A DNA stretch of 32,000 bases from Nostoc punctiforme PCC 73102. Lineage in GTDB: Bacteria; Cyanobacteriota; Cyanobacteriia; Cyanobacteriales; Nostocaceae. Position numbers and translations under genes: made by a program. The stretch is taken from the NCBI RefSeq assembly GCF_000020025.1, contig NC_010628.1:4170001-4202000 (forward strand). Direction: 5' to 3'. Below the pieces are notes generated by a model. That model was given only the letters and a program-made list of their open reading frames with translations, ran no database searches and was not told where the DNA came from. Shown one piece after another: positions 16,429 to 32,000 of the stretch (the stretch's first letter is position 1; every line of letters starts with the position of its first letter).

Positions 16429-19400
16429 GTGGAACCCGTAGCAATTATTGGCATTGGCTGTCGTTTTCCTGGTGCTAACAACCCAGACGCTTTTTGGCAT
16501 CTTTTACGCAATGGGATTGATGCGATATCAGAAGTGCCTGTGGAACGATGGGACATTGAAAAATTTTACCATCCCCAGCCTGGGACACCAGGAAAAATGA
16601 ATACTCGTTACGGTGGATTTATTGAACAAGTAGATCGGTTTGATCCAGATTTGTTTGGTATTTCTCCTCGGGAAGCCAAGGCAATGGACCCCCAACAACG
16701 CCTGGTTTTAGAAGTTGCTTGGGAAGCCTTGGAAAATGCCGCGATTGTACCTGCTGAGATATCTGGCACCCAAACGGGGGTTGTCGTTGGCATCGGTAAC
16801 TATGACTACGGCATCTTGTCATCCAAAGACTTAGACCGAATCAGTGCCTATGATGGTACTGGCAATACTATTAGTATTGCTGCTACTCGCCTATCTTACC
16901 TATTGAACCTTAAAGGTCCGAGTTTTACTATTGAAACGGCTTGCTCGTCCTCCCTAGTTGCGCTGCACTTAGCCTGTCAAAGTTTGCGAAATCAAGAAAC
17001 CGATTTATTCGTAGTCGGAGCGGTGAGCTTGATGTTGTCTCCGCAACAGACTATTACCTACTCTAATGCTCACATGATGGCAGAAGATGGGCGTTGCAAA
17101 ACCTTTGATGCTAAAGCAGATGGTTACGTCCGTGGTGAAGGATGTGGGGTTATATTGCTCAAGCGTCTGGCGGATGCGATGAGGGATGGAGATAATATTC
17201 AGGCAATTATCAGAGGTTCAGCAGTTAACCAAGATGGACTGAGCAATGGGATGACAGCACCTAACAGCGTTGCTCAACAAGCTGTAATTCGCCAAGCGCT
17301 GCAAAATGCTAGTGTTGAACCTGCCCAAATTAGCTATATTGAGGCTCATGGCACTGGCACATCACTGGGAGATCCCATTGAAATCAGGGCTTTAAAAACC
17401 GTTCTCATGCAAGGCCGCAGTTCTGAGCAACCATGCTGGATTGGTTCAGTGAAAACCAATATTGGCCATTTGGAAGCTGCCGCGGGAATGGCTGGGTTAC
17501 TGAAAGTAGTTTTGGCGCTGAAGCATCAACAAATTCCGCCTCATTTAAATCTTCAAGAGCTAAACCCCTTAATTTCCTTTGACGACATTCCCTTTGCTAT
17601 TCCTTGCGAACTGCAACCTTGGCAGGTAAATACTGAGCCTCGCTTTGCAGGTATCAGTTCCTTTGGTTTTGGCGGTACTAATGCCCATGTCATTTTAGAA
17701 GAAGGCAGAGGACAGCAACGAGGAAATCAGAGCCAGAGAATAGATATCCTGGAACGTCCTCTACATTTACTCACTATCTCTGCAAAAACTCCTCCGGCTT
17801 TGTCTGAATTAGCACAACGTTATGCGAACTTTTTGGATGAAAATCCAGAATTAGCTTTGGCAGATATTTGCTACACAGCTAATAGAAAGCGATCGCATTT
17901 TGAACACCGTTTGGCAGTTGTAGCAGATTCTACTTCTGAGTTAAGGCAGCAACTACAACTTTTCACTGCTAGAACAGAAACAACTACAATAGTCACAGGT
18001 CAGGTACAAGGCAACAAGCGCCGCAAAATCGCCTTTTTATTTACAGGACAAGGGTCACAGTACACCGGGATGGGGCAAAAACTGTACCAAACTCAAGCTA
18101 AATTCCGGCAAATCATCGAGCAATGCGACCAAATTCTGCAACCATATCTAGACAAACCATTACTAGAAGTTTTATATCCTCAACCAGAGACAAACAGCCC
18201 CATCGACAACACCGCCTATACCCAAGTTGCTCTATTTGCCCTAGAATACGCCCTCTACCAACTGTGGCAATCCTGGGGGATTAAACCAGATGTAGTCATG
18301 GGGCATAGCGTCGGAGAATACGTCGCCGCCTGCGTCGCTGGGGTATTTAGCCTCGAAGACGGGTTGAAATTGATTGCCGCCCGTGGGAGATTAATGCAAG
18401 CCCTACCGGAAAACGGGGCGATGGTAGCAGTCATGGCCACAGCAGAGCAACTACAGCCACTGCTAGCAGCATACAAAGAAAAAGTCGCCATCGCCGCCGT
18501 CAACGGACCCCAGAGTCTGGTAATCTCTGGAGAGAAATCAGCCATCAGTGCCATCACCAGCCAACTAGAAACCGCAGGGATCAAAACCAAACAACTACAA
18601 GTATCCCACGCCTTCCACTCCCCCTTGATGCAGCCGATGTTGGCAGATTTTCTGCAAGTCGCCAATGAAATTAAGTTTGCTCCACCGCAGATGAAGCTGA
18701 TTTCTAATGTCACTGGACAACTAGCCACAATAGAAATCGCCACAGCCGAATATTGGTGTCGTCATATTCTTAATCCTGTAGAATTTGCCGCAAGTATGGC
18801 GACACTACAACAGCAGAAAGTGGCAATATGTGTAGAAATCGGTCCCAAACCGATATTGTTGGGTATGGGTCGTCAGTGCAACCCCACAGTTGAGGGATTG
18901 TGGTTGCCCAGTCTGCGCTCGGGACAAGATGATTGGCAGGTGATGTTATTATCCTTGGCACAGTTGCATTGTCATGGTGTGGCTGTGGATTGGCTCTTGT
19001 TTGATGCTGATTATTCCCGTGTGCGTTTGTATTTGCCTACTTATCCTTTCCAACGTCAGCGTTTTTGGATAGAGAGTAAAACTGACCAAAAAACCGATCG
19101 CTTAGTTCACAGCTCGATTGTAAAGCTACTACATCAAGGAAATATAGAACAATTAACCCAGCAGTTAGCCAGTCAACTATCAGCAGATGAGCAGACATAT
19201 TTGCCAAAACTGCTGGAAGTGCTGGTGAAGCAACACCAGATGGAAATCAATTCCCCAGCCATTCTCGATTGGTTTTATCAGATCGAATGGCAACCCCAAC
19301 CCCGCCGCCAGCCAGAGACACAAAAAAATGGAGCGCCTAAAAAAGTTGGTAGTTGGCTAATATTAGGCGATCGCACTGGTTTGGGACAAGCCATAGCCCA

Positions 19401-27878: not shown

Positions 27879-30200
27879 ATGAGTTCAGAACAAGCTAATT
27901 CCCTATCTCCTATCAAACGGGCGCTGATGGCGCTAGAGAAGATGCAGGCCCAGCTTGATGCTGTAGAATATGCCAAAAAAGAACCGATCGCGATCGTGGG
28001 CATGGGTTGCCGATTCCCTGGTGGTGCTGATAACCCGGAGGCATTTTGGCAGTTGTTGCGTGATGGTGTTGATGCAATTATCGATATTCCAGGCGATCGC
28101 TGGGATACAGCAGCTTACTACGACCCCAATCCAGATACACCAGGAAAAATTTACACCCGTAAAGGAGGCTGTTTAAGCGATCGCTTGGATAGCTTTGAAC
28201 CCCAGTTTTTTGGGATTTCTGCCACAGAAGCCAAAAGCCTCGATCCCCAACAACGCTTGTTACTAGAGGTTGCTTGGGAAGCCCTGGAAAATGCCAATCA
28301 ATCACCAGAAAAGTTGTTTAACAGCCTCACAGGTGTATTTTTAGGCATCTGTAGCAATGACTATAACAACATGATTTGGCAGACTGGCGGCGCTACTCAA
28401 GTAGATGCTTTTTGTGCCACTGGCAATGCTTTAAGTGTAGCGGCTGGACGCTTATCTTATTTTTTGGGGTTAAAAGGGCCGAGTTTAGCTGTTGATACTG
28501 CTTGTTCTTCCTCATTAGTGGCACTACATTTGGCCTGTCAACATCTGCGGAATCAAGAGTGTCATCTGGCATTAGTGGGTGGAGTCCACTTACTGCTATC
28601 ACCAGAAACCAGTGTGGCTTTTGCCAGAACCAAAATGTTAGATGCTGATGGATACTGTAAAACCTTTGATGCTGACGCTAATGGCTATGTGCGTGGTGAA
28701 GGTTGTGGCGTCATCGTCCTCAAACGCTTGTCTGATGCTGTTGCTCACAAAGATAAAATTCTCGCTGTAATTCGCGGTTCCGCAGTCAACCACAATGGTC
28801 GCAGTAGTAGTTTAATTGCCCCTAACGGCCCGTCTCAGCAAGCCTTGATTCGTCAAGCCTTGGAGAATGCTAGTGTTGAACCCGCTGCTGTGAGTTACAT
28901 AGAAGTGCAAGGTACCAGCACATCCTTAGGACAACCAATTGAAGTGGAAGCGTTAGCAGCAGTATATGGCAAAAATCGCCCCCTAGACAATCCCTTGCTG
29001 ATTGGGTCGGTGAAAACTAATATTGGTCATCTGGAAGCAGCTTCCGGTATTGCAAGTTTAATGAAAATAGTACTTGCCATGCAACATGGCCAAATACCAC
29101 CCCACCTGCACTTGCATCAGCCCAATCCTTATATTGACTGGGAGAAATTACCAGTCAAAGTACCAACACAGAATATCCCTTGGGACAAAGGAGATCGGCA
29201 ACGCTTGGCTGGAATCAGTGCTTTTAGCTTTAGTGGGACTAATGCTCATATAGTGTTGGAAGAATACACAAATGCGGAAAATCCACAAGGGTTATCACGT
29301 TCTCTGCATATATTAGCCCTGTCCGCCAAGACACAAGAGTCACTAGTGCAGTTAACAGCAGCATACGAAAAGTACTTAGTTGGCAATCCAGAGTTGAATT
29401 TGGCAGATATTTGTTTTACAGCTAATACTAAGCGATCACATTTTCCCTACCGTCTAGCTGTAACTGCTGCTTCCACCTTGGAACTGGCAGGAAAACTAGG
29501 GGCTTTTAGAGACGGGAAAGCAGTAGAAGGGTTAAGTCAAGGTAAAGCCACTACTAATTTCCCAGAAGAACTACAAATACCCGATCTCAACTCCAAATCA
29601 ATAAATTGGCAAAGCATTTTGGAAAACGTTACTCAATCATATATCAAAGGTGTGACAATAGACTGGGCGGCTTTGTATCCAGATGATTTGTGCGCTCGCC
29701 TCCAATTACCAAATTATCCTTGGCAACGGCAACGCTATTGGATTGAGTCTGGAACACAGATCAATGCAGACTTGTCTATTATTGACTCGATCAAGCAGGG
29801 AAATGTGCATCAGCTAACTCAACAGTTGTCAGCAGCAGAAAACCTATCTGCCGATGAATGGGAATTATTGTCGCAACTGCTAACAAAATTAACAGATCCA
29901 TCGCCATCTATACAGCAATTGCAACGCCAATCGCTGACACTCACAGATATTCAAAACTGGCTAGTCTCGCAAATAGCCAAAGAAATGGGAGTCAAACCAG
30001 ATGATATAGAGGTTCAAGCACCTTTTGATAGTTACGGATTAGATTCCATGTTAGCAATTAGTATTGCCAATGCCGGACAAAAATATTTAGGAATCCAGGT
30101 TTCTCCATTGATGTTAGTACATTATCCGACAATTGCCGTACTTTCGCAGCACCTAGCTACAGAATTGGCAGCATCTGAAACAGAAGCTTTTGAAATTTGA
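27879..30200 (+). CDS. Degenerate PKS module 3: KS(Cys-Gln-His)-[AT-less linker remnant]-dimerization element-ACP
   Basis: N-terminal docking helix LSPIKRALMALEKMQAQLDAVE. The KS retains Cys (28503-28505, DTACSSS) and the second His (29028-29030). The EAHGTGT motif, however, reads EVQGTST, with Gln codon CAA at 28908-28910. The KS-AT linker (SLHILALSAKT...FTANTKRSHFPYRLAV) runs directly into the post-AT linker (VTIDWAALY...LPNYPWQRQRYWIE). About 20 aa replace the whole AT core. There is no KR. ACP Ser is at 30045-30047 (GLDS). Confidence 0.9.
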   Translation: MSSEQANSLSPIKRALMALEKMQAQLDAVEYAKKEPIAIVGMGCRFPGGADNPEAFWQLLRDGVDAIIDIPGDRWDTAAYYDPNPDTPGKIYTRKGGCLSDRLDSFEPQFFGISATEAKSLDPQQRLLLEVAWEALENANQSPEKLFNSLTGVFLGICSNDYNNMIWQTGGATQVDAFCATGNALSVAAGRLSYFLGLKGPSLAVDTACSSSLVALHLACQHLRNQECHLALVGGVHLLLSPETSVAFARTKMLDADGYCKTFDADANGYVRGEGCGVIVLKRLSDAVAHKDKILAVIRGSAVNHNGRSSSLIAPNGPSQQALIRQALENASVEPAAVSYIEVQGTSTSLGQPIEVEALAAVYGKNRPLDNPLLIGSVKTNIGHLEAASGIASLMKIVLAMQHGQIPPHLHLHQPNPYIDWEKLPVKVPTQNIPWDKGDRQRLAGISAFSFSGTNAHIVLEEYTNAENPQGLSRSLHILALSAKTQESLVQLTAAYEKYLVGNPELNLADICFTANTKRSHFPYRLAVTAASTLELAGKLGAFRDGKAVEGLSQGKATTNFPEELQIPDLNSKSINWQSILENVTQSYIKGVTIDWAALYPDDLCARLQLPNYPWQRQRYWIESGTQINADLSIIDSIKQGNVHQLTQQLSAAENLSADEWELLSQLLTKLTDPSPSIQQLQRQSLTLTDIQNWLVSQIAKEMGVKPDDIEVQAPFDSYGLDSMLAISIANAGQKYLGIQVSPLMLVHYPTIAVLSQHLATELAASETEAFEI
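27981..29265 (+). other. KS domain of module 3 lacking the HGTGT histidine, predicted non-elongating (KS0-like)
   Basis: Aligned with KS1 IEAHGTGTSLGDPIE and KS2 VEAHGTGTSLGDPIE, KS3 reads IEVQGTSTSLGQPIE. Confidence 0.8.
29299..29750 (+). other. KS-AT linker fused to the post-AT linker, with the AT catalytic core deleted
   Basis: The junction lies around 29545-29610 (GKATTNFPEELQIPDLNSKSINWQSILENVTQSYIKGVTIDW). The motifs GQGSQ, GHSxG and HAFH are all absent. Confidence 0.8.
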
Positions 30201-30242: not shown

Positions 30243-30407
30243 ATGAATATCACTGAACTTGTAGATAACTTGACTCAAAAAGGTGTAAAATTATGGGTTG
30301 ATAATGATAAACTTCGCATTCATTCACCCAAAGGAATATTAACACCAGAAATCCAAAGCGAACTGGCAAAACGCAAAGTCGAAATTCTCAGTTTACTGCA
30401 AAGAAAA
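30243..30407 (+). other. N-terminal beta-hairpin (TubC_N-like) docking domain
   Basis: MNITELVDNLTQKGVKLWVDNDKLRIHSPKGILTPEIQSELAKRKVEILSLLQRK fits the pattern GVxLWxxxxxLRxxxPxGxLTPExxxxLxxxKxExxxLL of TubC-type docking domains. Confidence 0.75.
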
Positions 30408-32000
30408 AATAACGATTCTGAATGTCCTACAGATAATGGTCAATCCCTAAGCTTACAAACTATCGGACGTTTAATTGGCGGTTTTTCCCAAAAAACCGAT
30501 ACAGATTTTAAGCCGCCTGTTACCAACCCCGAAGTTATGGCGCAAAAGCTGAAAATTACTTTTCGACCCTTGCCCAAGGGATATCAAGAAGCAGCAATTA
30601 TTAAATTTCGAGAACAATTAACGCAGAAACTCCAAGATTGTGGCGTGCAGATTGCAGATTGGGAATCAGCCACCAAAGAAATGAACTATGAAATCACCAT
30701 TCCCCTAACTAATCTGCGAAAGACAATCAAAACTAGGGTGGTGAAAGCCGATGTTAGTGCCATTATCGATGTTGAAAGAAAACCGAATTTACTCAGTAAG
30801 CTGAAGATTTGTATTGCAGAAAATCTCTATAATTTCTATTCTCAATTTATTTGGAAACATCAAAAACAGTCTGTCTCCAAAATTGCTCAATTTATCAGTT
30901 GGGCTGAAGAGAATATTCAACCAGTAGAAGACCCTACCAATACCCAAATTATTGTATTGACAGACTTGGATGAAGAATTTGTTAGCTCCAATCTCCCCTA
31001 TCAACAAAAAATCCCTATTGGCGTAAATACTCTAGTCAGAACATTTTCTGAGATTGTCATTGGTGTGTCTTCTCATCAGATTTCTATATTAAATATGAAT
31101 CTTTCCGATTCTACATTTCCTGTGGAATCAATCGATGATTTTGTTTTGAAATCTTTAACACCGAAAATATACGTACCAATTTTACCATTGCCGTTGAGCA
31201 GATTTACCATTAGTCAATATGACCCAAATCAATCCCCCTATGCAGCCCAACTGGTAAAATTTGGTCAAGAATTAGCAGCAACAGAATTGCTGCCTTCTGG
31301 ATTCAAAATTGACGATGTAATTACCAGAAAATCCCATCGAGATATTGTAGACTGGATGGCAAATGGGAGAACAGGTGTATCTTATGGTTTTGTCGCTTAT
31401 GCAGAACCTCCACAATATGTCGGGGCTGGAGAAATCTCAGCTAGTGAATGGGAGAACTTATCACCCATCCCTGGATTTAGCAACGATGAACTGCGACTAA
31501 ATCAAATTGGTAGGAGATATTTAAAAACCAAAATTGGTAATGAATATCGATACAAACAAATACCAGATATTTGGGTTGTCAGTTCTCGTTCGGGTTCCAA
31601 AAAAACAGACCTAAATTTGGAAACCGATATTCTCAGGATTGGCTTGCAAGATAGGCTGTTGTTGCAATTACCAGAAGCAATTAACCCAAGCGCTGGGGAT
31701 ATTAAACCATCATACGACTTGTACGTGATGGTGGCGATCGCCCTCTCTGCTTCCCTATATGCGCCAGAACTCATTGAAAATGGTGCGCCAATGGTTCATT
31801 TCCACGGATACCCATCTCTTGATTGGTTTAAGTCCGAGAAAGAATATTACACAGGTGTCCACAATCCCTCAGTTCCCTGTGGAACTTATGAATCAGGAGT
31901 CTTTAACTTCCTGGGGATATACGATTTAGTTCAACAACATGGCAGTGATATTGCCTTAGCTAGTCTCATTGAACCAGATCACGGTACAAATATCATCGGC
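30243..32000 (+). CDS. Partial ORF of at least 586 aa, open to the window end: TubC-N-type docking domain followed by an unassigned region
   Basis: ATG at 30243, 42 nt after the PKS3 stop, with TAAGGA upstream. I translated all 586 codons by hand and found no stop. It is absent from the ORF track, presumably because no stop codon falls within the window. After residue 55 I recognise no ANL, condensation (HHxxxDG), TE (GxSxG), FkbH or PLP motif. Confidence 0.85.
   Translation, partial: MNITELVDNLTQKGVKLWVDNDKLRIHSPKGILTPEIQSELAKRKVEILSLLQRKNNDSECPTDNGQSLSLQTIGRLIGGFSQKTDTDFKPPVTNPEVMAQKLKITFRPLPKGYQEAAIIKFREQLTQKLQDCGVQIADWESATKEMNYEITIPLTNLRKTIKTRVVKADVSAIIDVERKPNLLSKLKICIAENLYNFYSQFIWKHQKQSVSKIAQFISWAEENIQPVEDPTNTQIIVLTDLDEEFVSSNLPYQQKIPIGVNTLVRTFSEIVIGVSSHQISILNMNLSDSTFPVESIDDFVLKSLTPKIYVPILPLPLSRFTISQYDPNQSPYAAQLVKFGQELAATELLPSGFKIDDVITRKSHRDIVDWMANGRTGVSYGFVAYAEPPQYVGAGEISASEWENLSPIPGFSNDELRLNQIGRRYLKTKIGNEYRYKQIPDIWVVSSRSGSKKTDLNLETDILRIGLQDRLLLQLPEAINPSAGDIKPSYDLYVMVAIALSASLYAPELIENGAPMVHFHGYPSLDWFKSEKEYYTGVHNPSVPCGTYESGVFNFLGIYDLVQQHGSDIALASLIEPDHGTNIIG

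Follow-up and report, generated by a model that had tools for sequence, protein, structure and literature searches.

A docking-domain protein with an aldolase-like predicted fold behind the last polyketide synthase module of the Nostoc punctiforme nostochloroside cluster, and its candidate role in chain termination

How does a finished acyl chain leave a polyketide synthase (PKS) assembly line one carbon longer than it was, with a 1,2-diol at its former thioester end? This question is raised by a 32,000-nucleotide stretch of Nostoc punctiforme PCC 73102 (RefSeq assembly GCF_000020025.1, contig NC_010628.1, positions 4,170,001 to 4,202,000 of the forward strand; hereafter the window). At its right edge lies an open reading frame (ORF), here called X, which the original prediction had described from the letters alone as a docking-domain protein of unrecognisable family and as the best candidate for a previously undescribed chain-processing or off-loading enzyme. 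We find that its position and its partners fit such a role. It is not undescribed, being the counterpart of the already suspected terminator NglG, but it is real and interesting, as it sits at the unexplained step of the nostochloroside pathway at which a C20 chain comes off the assembly line as a C21 1,2-diol.

The ngl (pks3) cluster of Nostoc punctiforme ATCC 29133 makes nostochlorosides (Glasser et al., Nat Chem 2024; PMC10849952). These are chlorinated C21 lipids with 6-O-methylgulose on a terminal 1,2-diol, which are also found as fatty-acid esters, and their discoverers saw little precedent for the pathway (PMC10849952). The C21 tail corresponds to palmitate plus five carbons, with a hydroxyl at C6, chlorine at C12 and the 1,2-diol at the former thioester end (PMC10849952). 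The positions of the module-1 hydroxyl (C6) and of the chlorine (C12) make C2 the former thioester carbon, and the one new carbon, C1, bears the glycosylated oxygen. Since five carbons are gained and the line has two elongating modules only, termination must add one carbon and generate the alpha-hydroxy-carbonyl pattern.

To what was published on NglG, the present analysis adds a confident structural model with a candidate metal site, an N-terminal region of 270 residues that lacks a structural relative, and a rule on the docking partner, predicted to be a tail-bearing carrier that sits, in the case of type I PKS partners, on a non-elongating KS(Gln)-AT0 module. It further adds a family that spans at least three cluster architectures and a large stand-alone branch tied to lipid acyltransferases in reduced-genome bacteria and archaea.

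The gene and its counterpart NglG

30243..32000 (+ strand): NglG-type gene, "X"; 586 of ~620 codons, with the stop ~102 nt past the window end

Translation of this frame is free of stops over 586 codons and open at the window edge, in agreement with the predicted continuous ORF of at least that length. The ATG start lies 42 nt behind the stop (30200) of a gene for a ketosynthase-acyl carrier protein (KS-ACP), with an AAGGA 12 nt upstream, and X is absent from the program-made ORF list because its frame runs off the window. A search of 5.8 billion proteins yielded more than 120 full-length homologues (613-647 aa, 62-97% identity), of which all organism-named ones are cyanobacterial. The missing end of the gene is estimated from the closest of these, P0001 from Nostoc sp. 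C117 (620 aa), which is identical at 569 of 586 positions with zero indels and has 34 more residues past the window end. Averaged over the alignment columns of 36 members, identity is 69%, which is very high for an enzyme of secondary metabolism, and X is a conserved gene far beyond chance. As the homologues all end at ~620 aa, X is a stand-alone enzyme and not the start of a larger megasynthase, which had been offered as one possibility.

The sole Pfam annotation on any full-length homologue is the docking domain TubC_N, and residues 60-586 of X gave no Pfam or NCBIfam match at E <= 1. This bears out the prediction that the protein lacks signatures of the C and A domains of nonribosomal peptide synthetases (NRPS), of thioesterases, reductases and FkbH, and of enzymes dependent on pyridoxal phosphate, as zero matches of any of these kinds were obtained at that threshold; the four peptide strings quoted with it are all present in the translation.

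The window reads, in order, thioesterase (TE, on the minus strand), fatty acyl-AMP ligase (FAAL), ACP, CylC-like halogenase, KS-AT-KR-ACP, KS-AT-DH-ER-KR-ACP, KS-ACP and X, and corresponds to Npun_R3355 to Npun_F3362 (AT, acyltransferase; KR, ketoreductase; DH, dehydratase; ER, enoylreductase). In the published cluster the third PKS, NglF, has a His-to-Gln change at residue 344 (PMC10849952). NglG is a hypothetical protein with a PKS docking domain, for which a role as line terminator was proposed, and its residues 437-607 found weak SWISS-MODEL templates of rhamnulose-1-phosphate aldolase at ~14% identity (PMC10849952, Supplementary Note 3). Because the gene order is ngl-like and the KS-ACP of the window has Gln344, X is the counterpart of NglG, and counting genes from the thioesterase (Npun_R3355) places it at Npun_F3362; this orthology is drawn from synteny and the shared KS substitution. 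Like X, NglG follows a KS(His344Gln)-ACP, with the same order from the thioesterase on, and combines a docking domain with a weakly aldolase-like C-terminal part. Literature searches on NglG follow-up, aldolase-like PKS release and 1,2-diol biosynthesis found nothing beyond the 2024 paper.

Downstream of X, a locus that is 97% identical (L001) encodes a short-chain dehydrogenase/reductase (SDR), a sugar-1,4-lactone-oxidase-like flavoenzyme, a second SDR, an epimerase-like protein, a GMC oxidoreductase, a GT4 glycosyltransferase and a methyltransferase, a set of genes that fits a 6-O-methylgulose glycolipid. The flavoenzyme (L001 12892-14229), of the L-gulonolactone oxidase family, thus occurs in the cluster of a gulose product, and the origin of the gulose has been stated to be unknown.

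Proposed docking partner and predicted fold

30249..30401 (+ strand): beta-hairpin docking domain (TubC_N), residues 3-53, by Pfam, PDB sequence matches and Foldseek
27879..30200 (+ strand): KS-ACP, NglF counterpart and predicted docking partner, by Pfam domains, alignments, Gln344 and tail statistics

The predicted TubC-N-like beta-hairpin docking domain is borne out. Residues 3-53 match Pfam TubC_N (PF18563) with E 1e-18 and 67.6 bits (cut-off 26), and by sequence the region also recovers the solved domains of AerJ (8aqq, E 7e-8), TubC (2jug) and EpoB. In the structural model it consists of a helix (3-12), two strands (16-20 and 23-27) and two further helices (35-43 and 45-58), the same alpha-beta-beta-alpha-alpha arrangement as in the solved ones, and Foldseek superposes it on AerJ 8aqq with a target-normalised TM score of 0.90 and an rmsd of 1.2.

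Its recruitment to the tail of an upstream carrier, likewise predicted, has a credible partner in the KS-ACP of the window, whose C-terminal end reads ...ASETEAFEI. We surveyed the contexts of X homologues in seven genomic contexts and 79 metagenomic loci and counted upstream partners for the 63 homologues with a same-strand gene at most 400 nt upstream. The gene directly upstream encodes a bare ACP of ~101 aa in 42 of the 63 and a KS-containing module in 14. A tail of the form E-x-[FILMVY]-[EQV]-[ILV], which the KS-ACP of the window fits, closes 52 of these 63 directly upstream ORFs as against 7 of 547 other ORFs (Fisher p 2e-56), and all seven of the latter are ACPs two genes upstream of an X homologue. 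The docking partner thus appears always to be a carrier protein with a conserved acidic tail, and it is well supported by these sequences that the docking domain of X would bind the tail (...ETEAFEI) of the preceding KS-ACP. A docking-bearing homologue also occurs in Pseudomonas huaxiensis, where the gene directly upstream is a ligase-carrier fusion ending ...LEFMEV; at this locus (L088 7951-11854) 4 nt separate the X homologue from the AMP-binding ligase, which has its carrier domain and docking tail at the C-terminus, and RHS-repeat proteins flank the pair.

The KS-ACP itself is unusual. In the window it retains Cys209 and His384, but the His of the HGTGT motif is replaced by Gln344 (codon 28908-28910; motif EVQGTSTS), and an AT is lacking; the serine motif of its ACP lies at 30024-30050 and the tail ASETEAFEI at 30171-30197. 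The nearest KS protein upstream of X has lost the HGTGT His in 13 of 13 cases (12 Gln, 1 Asn) and the GHSxG motif of the AT in 12 of 13, whereas the next KS protein further upstream has both in 7 of 7. In alignments, the partner ATs elsewhere are remnants that have lost ~100 residues including the HAFH motif, and in the window the AT is wholly deleted. With a KS that lacks this His and no working AT, the module is expected to be unable to elongate and would therefore park the finished C20 chain on its ACP, so that X would receive a finished acyl-ACP. Where the partner of X is a type I PKS module, then, it appears always to be non-elongating, with the KS His replaced and the AT dead. A precedent is ClyE, a KS0-AT0 carrier module from which a chlorinated fatty chain is passed unextended to a docking-domain enzyme (PMC7923214). 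The neighbourhood analysis called for with the original prediction therefore places the homologues behind tail-bearing carriers that, among type I PKS partners, are of the non-elongating kind.

Two side observations concern these modules. The partner KSs of the window, L002 and L084-L086 form a distinct clade, with Gln or Asn for the HGTGT His, the Cys and second His kept, and NHNGRSSSL in place of NQDGxSxG. The degraded partner ATs read GYGVG, GQGVG or GSGTG and carry the ~100-aa deletion, with nothing of the domain left in the window.

The architecture of X is a docking domain, an alpha/beta region of ~270 residues and a C-terminal class II aldolase-like domain, with the following parts and motifs, all on the + strand.

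30438..31232: N-terminal alpha/beta region, residues ~66-330; holds NMNLSD (31092-31109) and L-x-PKI-x-x-P-x-x-P (31155-31187)
31233..32000: predicted class II aldolase-like catalytic domain, residues ~331-586+, by Foldseek; cut by the window end, with its start taken from secondary-structure mapping
31365..31391: GRTGVSYGF loop/strand, residues 375-383; R376 and G382 invariant; proposed counterpart, by eye, of the G-N-x-S strand
31584..31607: SRSGSKKT, residues 448-455; S450, G451 and K454 invariant; proposed phosphate/anion loop
31704..31718: KPSYD, residues 488-492; S490 and D492 invariant; proposed counterpart of P-S-S-E/D, acid/base and fourth metal ligand
31797..31808: HFHG, residues 519-522; H519 and H521 invariant; proposed His-x-His metal ligands
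31971..31985: EPDHG, residues 577-581; E577, H580 and G581 invariant; proposed third His ligand

An AlphaFold2 model of P0001, computed with 36 homologues, reached a pLDDT of 84.6 and a pTM of 0.81. Searched in full against the PDB with Foldseek, its best matches are nine structures of E. coli L-rhamnulose-1-phosphate aldolase (RhaD), all with probability 1.00, E values of 1.6e-4 to 5e-4, target-normalised TM scores of 0.44-0.47 and ~315 aligned columns; the same run also matched 2z7b, a decarboxylase of the aldolase superfamily. C and Cy domain structures (5t81, 6cgo) were matched by Foldseek solely through the docking domains that they contain (TM ~0.1). The C-terminal ~250-290 residues of X are thus predicted to adopt a class II aldolase-like alpha/beta fold. 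The description of the family as unrecognisable is to this extent narrowed: the body of the protein falls outside all HMM-defined families, but its C-terminal part has a recognisable predicted fold.

Conservation agrees with this picture. Over 32 sequences with identity down to 21%, 17 positions are invariant (P315, R376, G382, P441, S450, G451, K454, D462, S490, D492, H519, H521, G538, C546, E577, H580 and G581); all but P315 fall in the C-terminal domain and most lie inside the aldolase-like motifs. We compared these motifs with FucA, AraD and RhaD sequences verified against the PDB. In Smith-Waterman alignment, residues 436-620 score against AraD with z 4.9, a value reached by 0 of 300 shuffles, and the alignment pairs MVHFH with IVHTH (His95, His97), VPC with IPC, and EPDHG with HSHG (His171). 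By eye, the secondary structure is collinear with that of FucA: the GRTGVSYGF strand, an inserted beta-meander as in RhaD, a strand with the loop WVVSSRSGSKKT, two strands, KPSYD at the start of the long helix, the MVHFH strand, VPCGT with a helix, and finally strand-PDHG-strand-helix. SRSGSKKT follows strand 442-448 and was compared by eye with TGSGK of RhaD and KPSG of AraD, KPSYD opens helix 491-506 as its counterpart does in FucA, and the low pLDDT of residues 375-378 suggests a mobile loop. Two motifs singled out in the original prediction, DIWVVSSRSGSKKT and MVHFHGYP, are read here as the phosphate-loop and His-x-His motifs of the aldolase fold. From this mapping onto a FucA-type fold, which we infer from the secondary structure of the model, X would have a candidate metal site of one Asp and three His and a candidate anion (phosphate) loop.

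X resembles RhaD, FucA and AraD (PF00596) in predicted fold and, as mapped here, would have the same succession of motifs (Ser-Gly loop, P-S-x-D/E, H-x-H, (I/V)-P-C and H-G). Its proposed His ligands are spaced by 59 residues as against 61 in FucA, and the insertion after the first strand is found in RhaD. It differs from class II aldolases in having no HMM or profile-profile similarity to them, in the extra N-terminal region of 270 residues and the docking domain, in that the Asn of G-N-x-S is not conserved, and in its presumed substrate, a carrier-bound long-chain thioester rather than a sugar phosphate.

The N-terminal region is less readily placed. Four of its residues (N286, K308, P312 and P315) are conserved throughout the wide family; modelled alone it reaches a pLDDT of 69, and a Foldseek search against the PDB gave a best E value of 0.04 and TM scores <= 0.35, with a Dbf4 BRCT domain, small GTPases and flavodoxin-like proteins at noise level.

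The terminating step

Class II aldolases such as FucA, RhaD and AraD stabilise a metal-bound enediolate. Our preferred reading, offered tentatively and somewhat short of calling it probable, is that X terminates the chain as an enediolate-type C-C enzyme and thereby gives the lipid its 1,2-diol terminus. The KS-ACP would hold the finished C20 acyl chain, and X, docked on its tail, would couple the acyl thioester as the electrophile to the metal-bound enediolate of a small alpha-hydroxy-carbonyl donor, for which dihydroxyacetone phosphate (DHAP), a phosphorylated alpha-hydroxy-ketone, is the simplest candidate. A new C-C bond would form and the ACP would be freed. The two activating carbons of the donor would then be lost, possibly by a retro-Claisen cleavage that releases phosphoglycolate and is carried out by X or a thioesterase, to leave R-CO-CH2OH, a 1-hydroxy-2-ketone one carbon longer than the acyl chain. 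The SDR encoded next to X would reduce the ketone to the 1,2-diol, which glycosyltransferases and acyltransferases would decorate to yield a glycerol-free mimic of a glycosyl-diacylglycerol. Metal dependence, donor, C-C bond formation and the order of the steps are all proposals of this scheme. Were it true, it would amount to a new assembly-line ending, in which a docking-recruited, aldolase-like metal enzyme forms a C-C bond, and pathway engineering would gain a new off-loading part. Handles for experiments are the conserved docking tail, the KS(Gln)-AT0 partner and the candidate catalytic residues.

10429..11274 (- strand): type II thioesterase, NglR counterpart (Pfam Thioesterase, E 4e-42); possible release or editing partner

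A metagenomic homologue of 837 aa (P0135) naturally joins a docking domain, the X core and a type II thioesterase in one polypeptide, which suggests that X and a thioesterase act on the same carrier-bound species.

Several points weigh against the proposed C-C enzyme. With a target-normalised TM of 0.47 the fold match is moderate, and outside the His motifs the residues were mapped by eye, with Smith-Waterman setting KPSYD in another register. Smith-Waterman alignments of X with FucA and with RhaD were not significant; the Aldolase_II family (PF00596) matched none of 32 family members at E <= 10; and hhalign against FucA, or against a FucA/AraD/RhaD profile, gave probabilities of 0.1-1% and misplaced HFHG onto an H-H-G motif. 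A profile search of the PDB with X found docking domains only, and a protein search with the FucA/AraD/RhaD profile found close enterobacterial orthologues only. Decarboxylases and O2-dependent enzymes (NovR, TqaM, 2z7b) are built on the class II aldolase fold as well, and literature searches gave no biochemistry for any member of the X family. In the scheme itself the identity of the donor is a guess, an extra C-C cleavage is required that has no assigned enzyme, and the N-terminal 270 residues are given no task. Finally, the thioesterase fusion in P0135, together with the thioesterase of the cluster, suggests that the product may stay thioester-bound after X.

Comparison with known systems helps to place the proposal. 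AfsA-type butenolide synthases and the peroxisomal DHAP acyltransferase pair an activated fatty acyl group with DHAP, as proposed for X, but their folds are unrelated to it and what they make is an O-acyl ester rather than a C-C bond. O-acylation of DHAP was considered for the cyanobacterial enzyme and rejected: the aglycone implied by the published formula C28H55O8Cl has no unsaturation and three oxygens only, and the link must therefore be C-C and not an ester or ether. Such an O-acylation is possible for the stand-alone relatives of X (see below). In chlorosphaerolactylate biosynthesis a FAAL-primed, CylC-chlorinated chain on the KS0-AT0 carrier ClyE is likewise handed to a docking-domain enzyme, ClyF, and coupled to a small alpha-hydroxy acid unit (PMC7923214). 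The acceptor ClyF, however, is an NRPS module (C-A-KR-T-TE) that forms an ester, whereas X is aldolase-like and the nostochloroside product has a new C-C bond. The same place in the pathway is elsewhere taken by a thioesterase, an R domain, the sulfotransferase-thioesterase of CurM/Ols or condensation-domain release, and the enacyloxin release enzyme (6cgo) has a beta-hairpin docking domain as X does; among these known PKS off-loading devices none is aldolase-like in fold and none adds a carbon, unlike X as proposed.

The discoverers of the cluster suggested instead that X works as a lyase (PMC10849952, Supplementary Note 3). Here a larger adduct, for example of acyl chain and sugar, would be made first, and a retro-aldol cut by X would leave the C21 vicinal diol, with release from the ACP left to something else. 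The predicted class II aldolase-like fold agrees with this as well, as do the many sugar-modifying enzymes of ngl-type clusters and the thioesterase that is found in the cluster and fused to a homologue. No cluster enzyme, however, is assigned to join the chain to a sugar carbon, and many homologous clusters hold just X and one SDR between the carrier protein and the glycosyltransferase. The docking domain and conserved tail put X on the acyl-ACP itself, and a retro-aldol reaction of the FucA/RhaD type gives an aldehyde and DHAP and by itself adds no carbon. Taken together, we regard a lyase as unlikely.

A second route would dispense with a small donor. The KS(Gln) would condense the chain with malonyl loaded in trans to a C22 3-oxoacyl-ACP, which X would hydrolyse, decarboxylate and oxygenate to the C21 1-hydroxy-2-ketone or a 2-oxoaldehyde; X would then resemble OtnC-type decarboxylases or the O2-dependent NovR/CloR-type enzymes, which have the same fold. 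The carbon count (+2 -1) and the positions of hydroxyl and chlorine fit this equally well, decarboxylases and NovR/TqaM do share the fold, and a tethered product is in keeping with the thioesterase fusion of P0135. An Asn in KAS III donates a hydrogen bond, and the Gln or Asn of the partner KS could do likewise. We nevertheless consider this route even less likely, since 12 of 13 KS partners have a dead AT or none and all have lost the HGTGT His, the partner is a bare ACP in 42 of the 63 loci, and the conserved Ser-Gly-x-x-Lys loop with several basic residues suggests an additional anionic ligand. The same type of module, moreover, leaves the chain unextended in the cly pathway (PMC7923214). 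NovR/CloR, TqaM and 2z7b show that the fold predicted for X can support decarboxylation and oxygen chemistry on non-phosphorylated substrates; in sequence they are not detectably related to X, and docking domains play no part in their recruitment.

It is improbable that X never touches the fatty chain and builds or loads onto the docked ACP a hydroxy-acyl unit of two or three carbons (of the glycolyl, glyceryl or hydroxymalonyl type), to which the KS(Gln) would join the chain before a thioesterase releases a 2-hydroxy-3-oxo acid that loses CO2. Ketose-derived glycolyl-ACP units and FkbH-type glyceryl-ACP provide precedents, the commonest partner is the bare ACP of ~101 aa, Cys546 is invariant, and the thioesterase fusion would again find a place. 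Yet thioester-forming chemistry is not known for the aldolase fold, Cys546 aligns with a structural Cys or Val of FucA and AraD, a KS without the HGTGT His is not expected to condense, and the partner in Pseudomonas is a ligase-carrier fusion of the fatty-acid type with no KS.

That X is a non-catalytic scaffold or pseudoenzyme bridging the ACP to downstream tailoring enzymes, as the want of any HMM-level match to enzyme families might suggest, is most improbable, as the 17 invariant columns (His, Asp, Ser, Lys, Arg, Cys and Glu among them) persist from cyanobacteria to Patescibacteria and archaea at 21-26% identity and mostly cluster in the predicted active-site motifs, and docking-free stand-alone forms are conserved in ~270 genomes.

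The wider family and the flanking genes

The core of X, without its docking domain, was compared exhaustively by HMMER with 1.84 billion cluster representatives and retrieved 126 of them, including proteins of 500-565 aa that lack the docking domain (21-35% identity). This large, unnamed family takes in hundreds of cyanobacterial clusters of at least three architectures, the Pseudomonas ligase pair and a stand-alone subfamily in 270 species-level genomes, mostly of Patescibacteria and archaea. At 25 loci the gene directly downstream of the X homologue encodes a 285-aa SDR, and recurrent neighbours are glycosyltransferases resembling monogalactosyldiacylglycerol (MGDG) synthase and acyltransferases, PapA5-like in clusters of the polyunsaturated fatty acid (PUFA) synthase type and PlsC-like in Patescibacteria. 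This suggests that the products of the family are acylated, glycosylated long-chain diols, that is, glycerol-free analogues of glycosyl-diacylglycerols.

From the 270 genomes we retrieved 80 stand-alone loci, which derive mostly from Patescibacteria (Parcubacteria, Saccharibacteria and others), with some from Thermoplasmata and Ignavibacteriota and few from gammaproteobacterial metagenome-assembled genomes; neighbours were counted over 76 of them. Of the 76, 42 have a PlsC-type acyltransferase gene upstream in the same orientation, in 34 as the next or next-but-one gene; a seven-transmembrane histidine kinase is present in 64, usually directly downstream, and an AMP-binding ligase upstream in 6. 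The stand-alone genes (L004-L083; for example L055 7213-7902 and 8001-9629) are seen among housekeeping genes for DnaK, DnaJ, tRNA synthetases, ScpA and ScpB.

These associations mean that X could bear on the origin of bacterial long-chain 1,2-diol lipids and on membrane building by reduced-genome bacteria. A wider and quite doubtful speculation is that the family as a whole is the missing synthase of long-chain 1,2-diol lipid backbones, making them from a fatty acyl thioester and a central C3 phosphate so that the chain gains one carbon and a glycerol-like head. Docking-domain members would then end cyanobacterial lines of the PKS or PUFA type that make acylated, glycosylated diol lipids as mimics of MGDG, and stand-alone members, together with the PlsC-type acyltransferase, would give Patescibacteria, Thermoplasmata and Ignavibacteriota that are unable to make fatty acids a glycerol-independent route from scavenged fatty acids to membrane lipids. 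This could also account for the 1,2-diol membranes of bacteria such as Thermomicrobium; the genome paper of T. roseum calls the biosynthesis of its 1,2-diol membrane lipids unresolved (PMC2615216).

At metagenomic and Symploca loci (L087, L109-L139), many homologues belong to PUFA-synthase/hgl-like clusters (DH, KS, PfaD) that also encode a PapA5-like acyltransferase, a bare ACP and exporters of the DevB/HlyD type, and a conserved group of small genes (~92, 222, 200 and 273 aa) often stands behind X. For these PfaD/hgl-like clusters with DevB-like exporters a role in heterocyst glycolipids was considered and dropped, as the family is common in non-heterocystous strains and heterocyst glycolipids are even-numbered fatty alcohols.

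Two further genes of the cluster in the window were absent from, or less readily named by, the standard lists.

14423-14740 (+ strand): small ACP of 105 codons between fatty acyl-AMP ligase and halogenase, below the 150-aa cut-off of the ORF list
14899-16269 (+ strand): CylC-like dimetal-carboxylate halogenase, 456 aa, 53-54% identical to proteins tagged PF28091 by precomputed annotation

The small ACP is 66% identical to the ACP of the Pleurocapsa cluster over 77 aligned residues, and the local Pfam copy gave no match for the halogenase ORF. For the first PKS the ORF list has a GTG start at 16429, with which the KS domain would begin at residue 1; translation probably starts slightly further upstream, because the L001 homologue has 1587 aa as against 1584 aa here. 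Antisense within this gene, a 162-aa ORF (18255-18743, - strand) is probably spurious.

The cluster is adjoined by a 1693-aa protein with 26 matched stretches of RTX calcium-binding repeats (4211-9292, - strand), which is not obviously a CylK/NglO homologue because no beta-propeller was detected in it; L001 has a separate protein with SBBP and RTX repeats behind the cluster. Further to the left a 250-aa ORF (222-974, - strand) has no family match, and an IS66-family transposase (2465-3589, - strand; DDE_Tnp_IS66, zf-IS66, DUF6444) appears truncated at the C-terminal end of its DDE domain.

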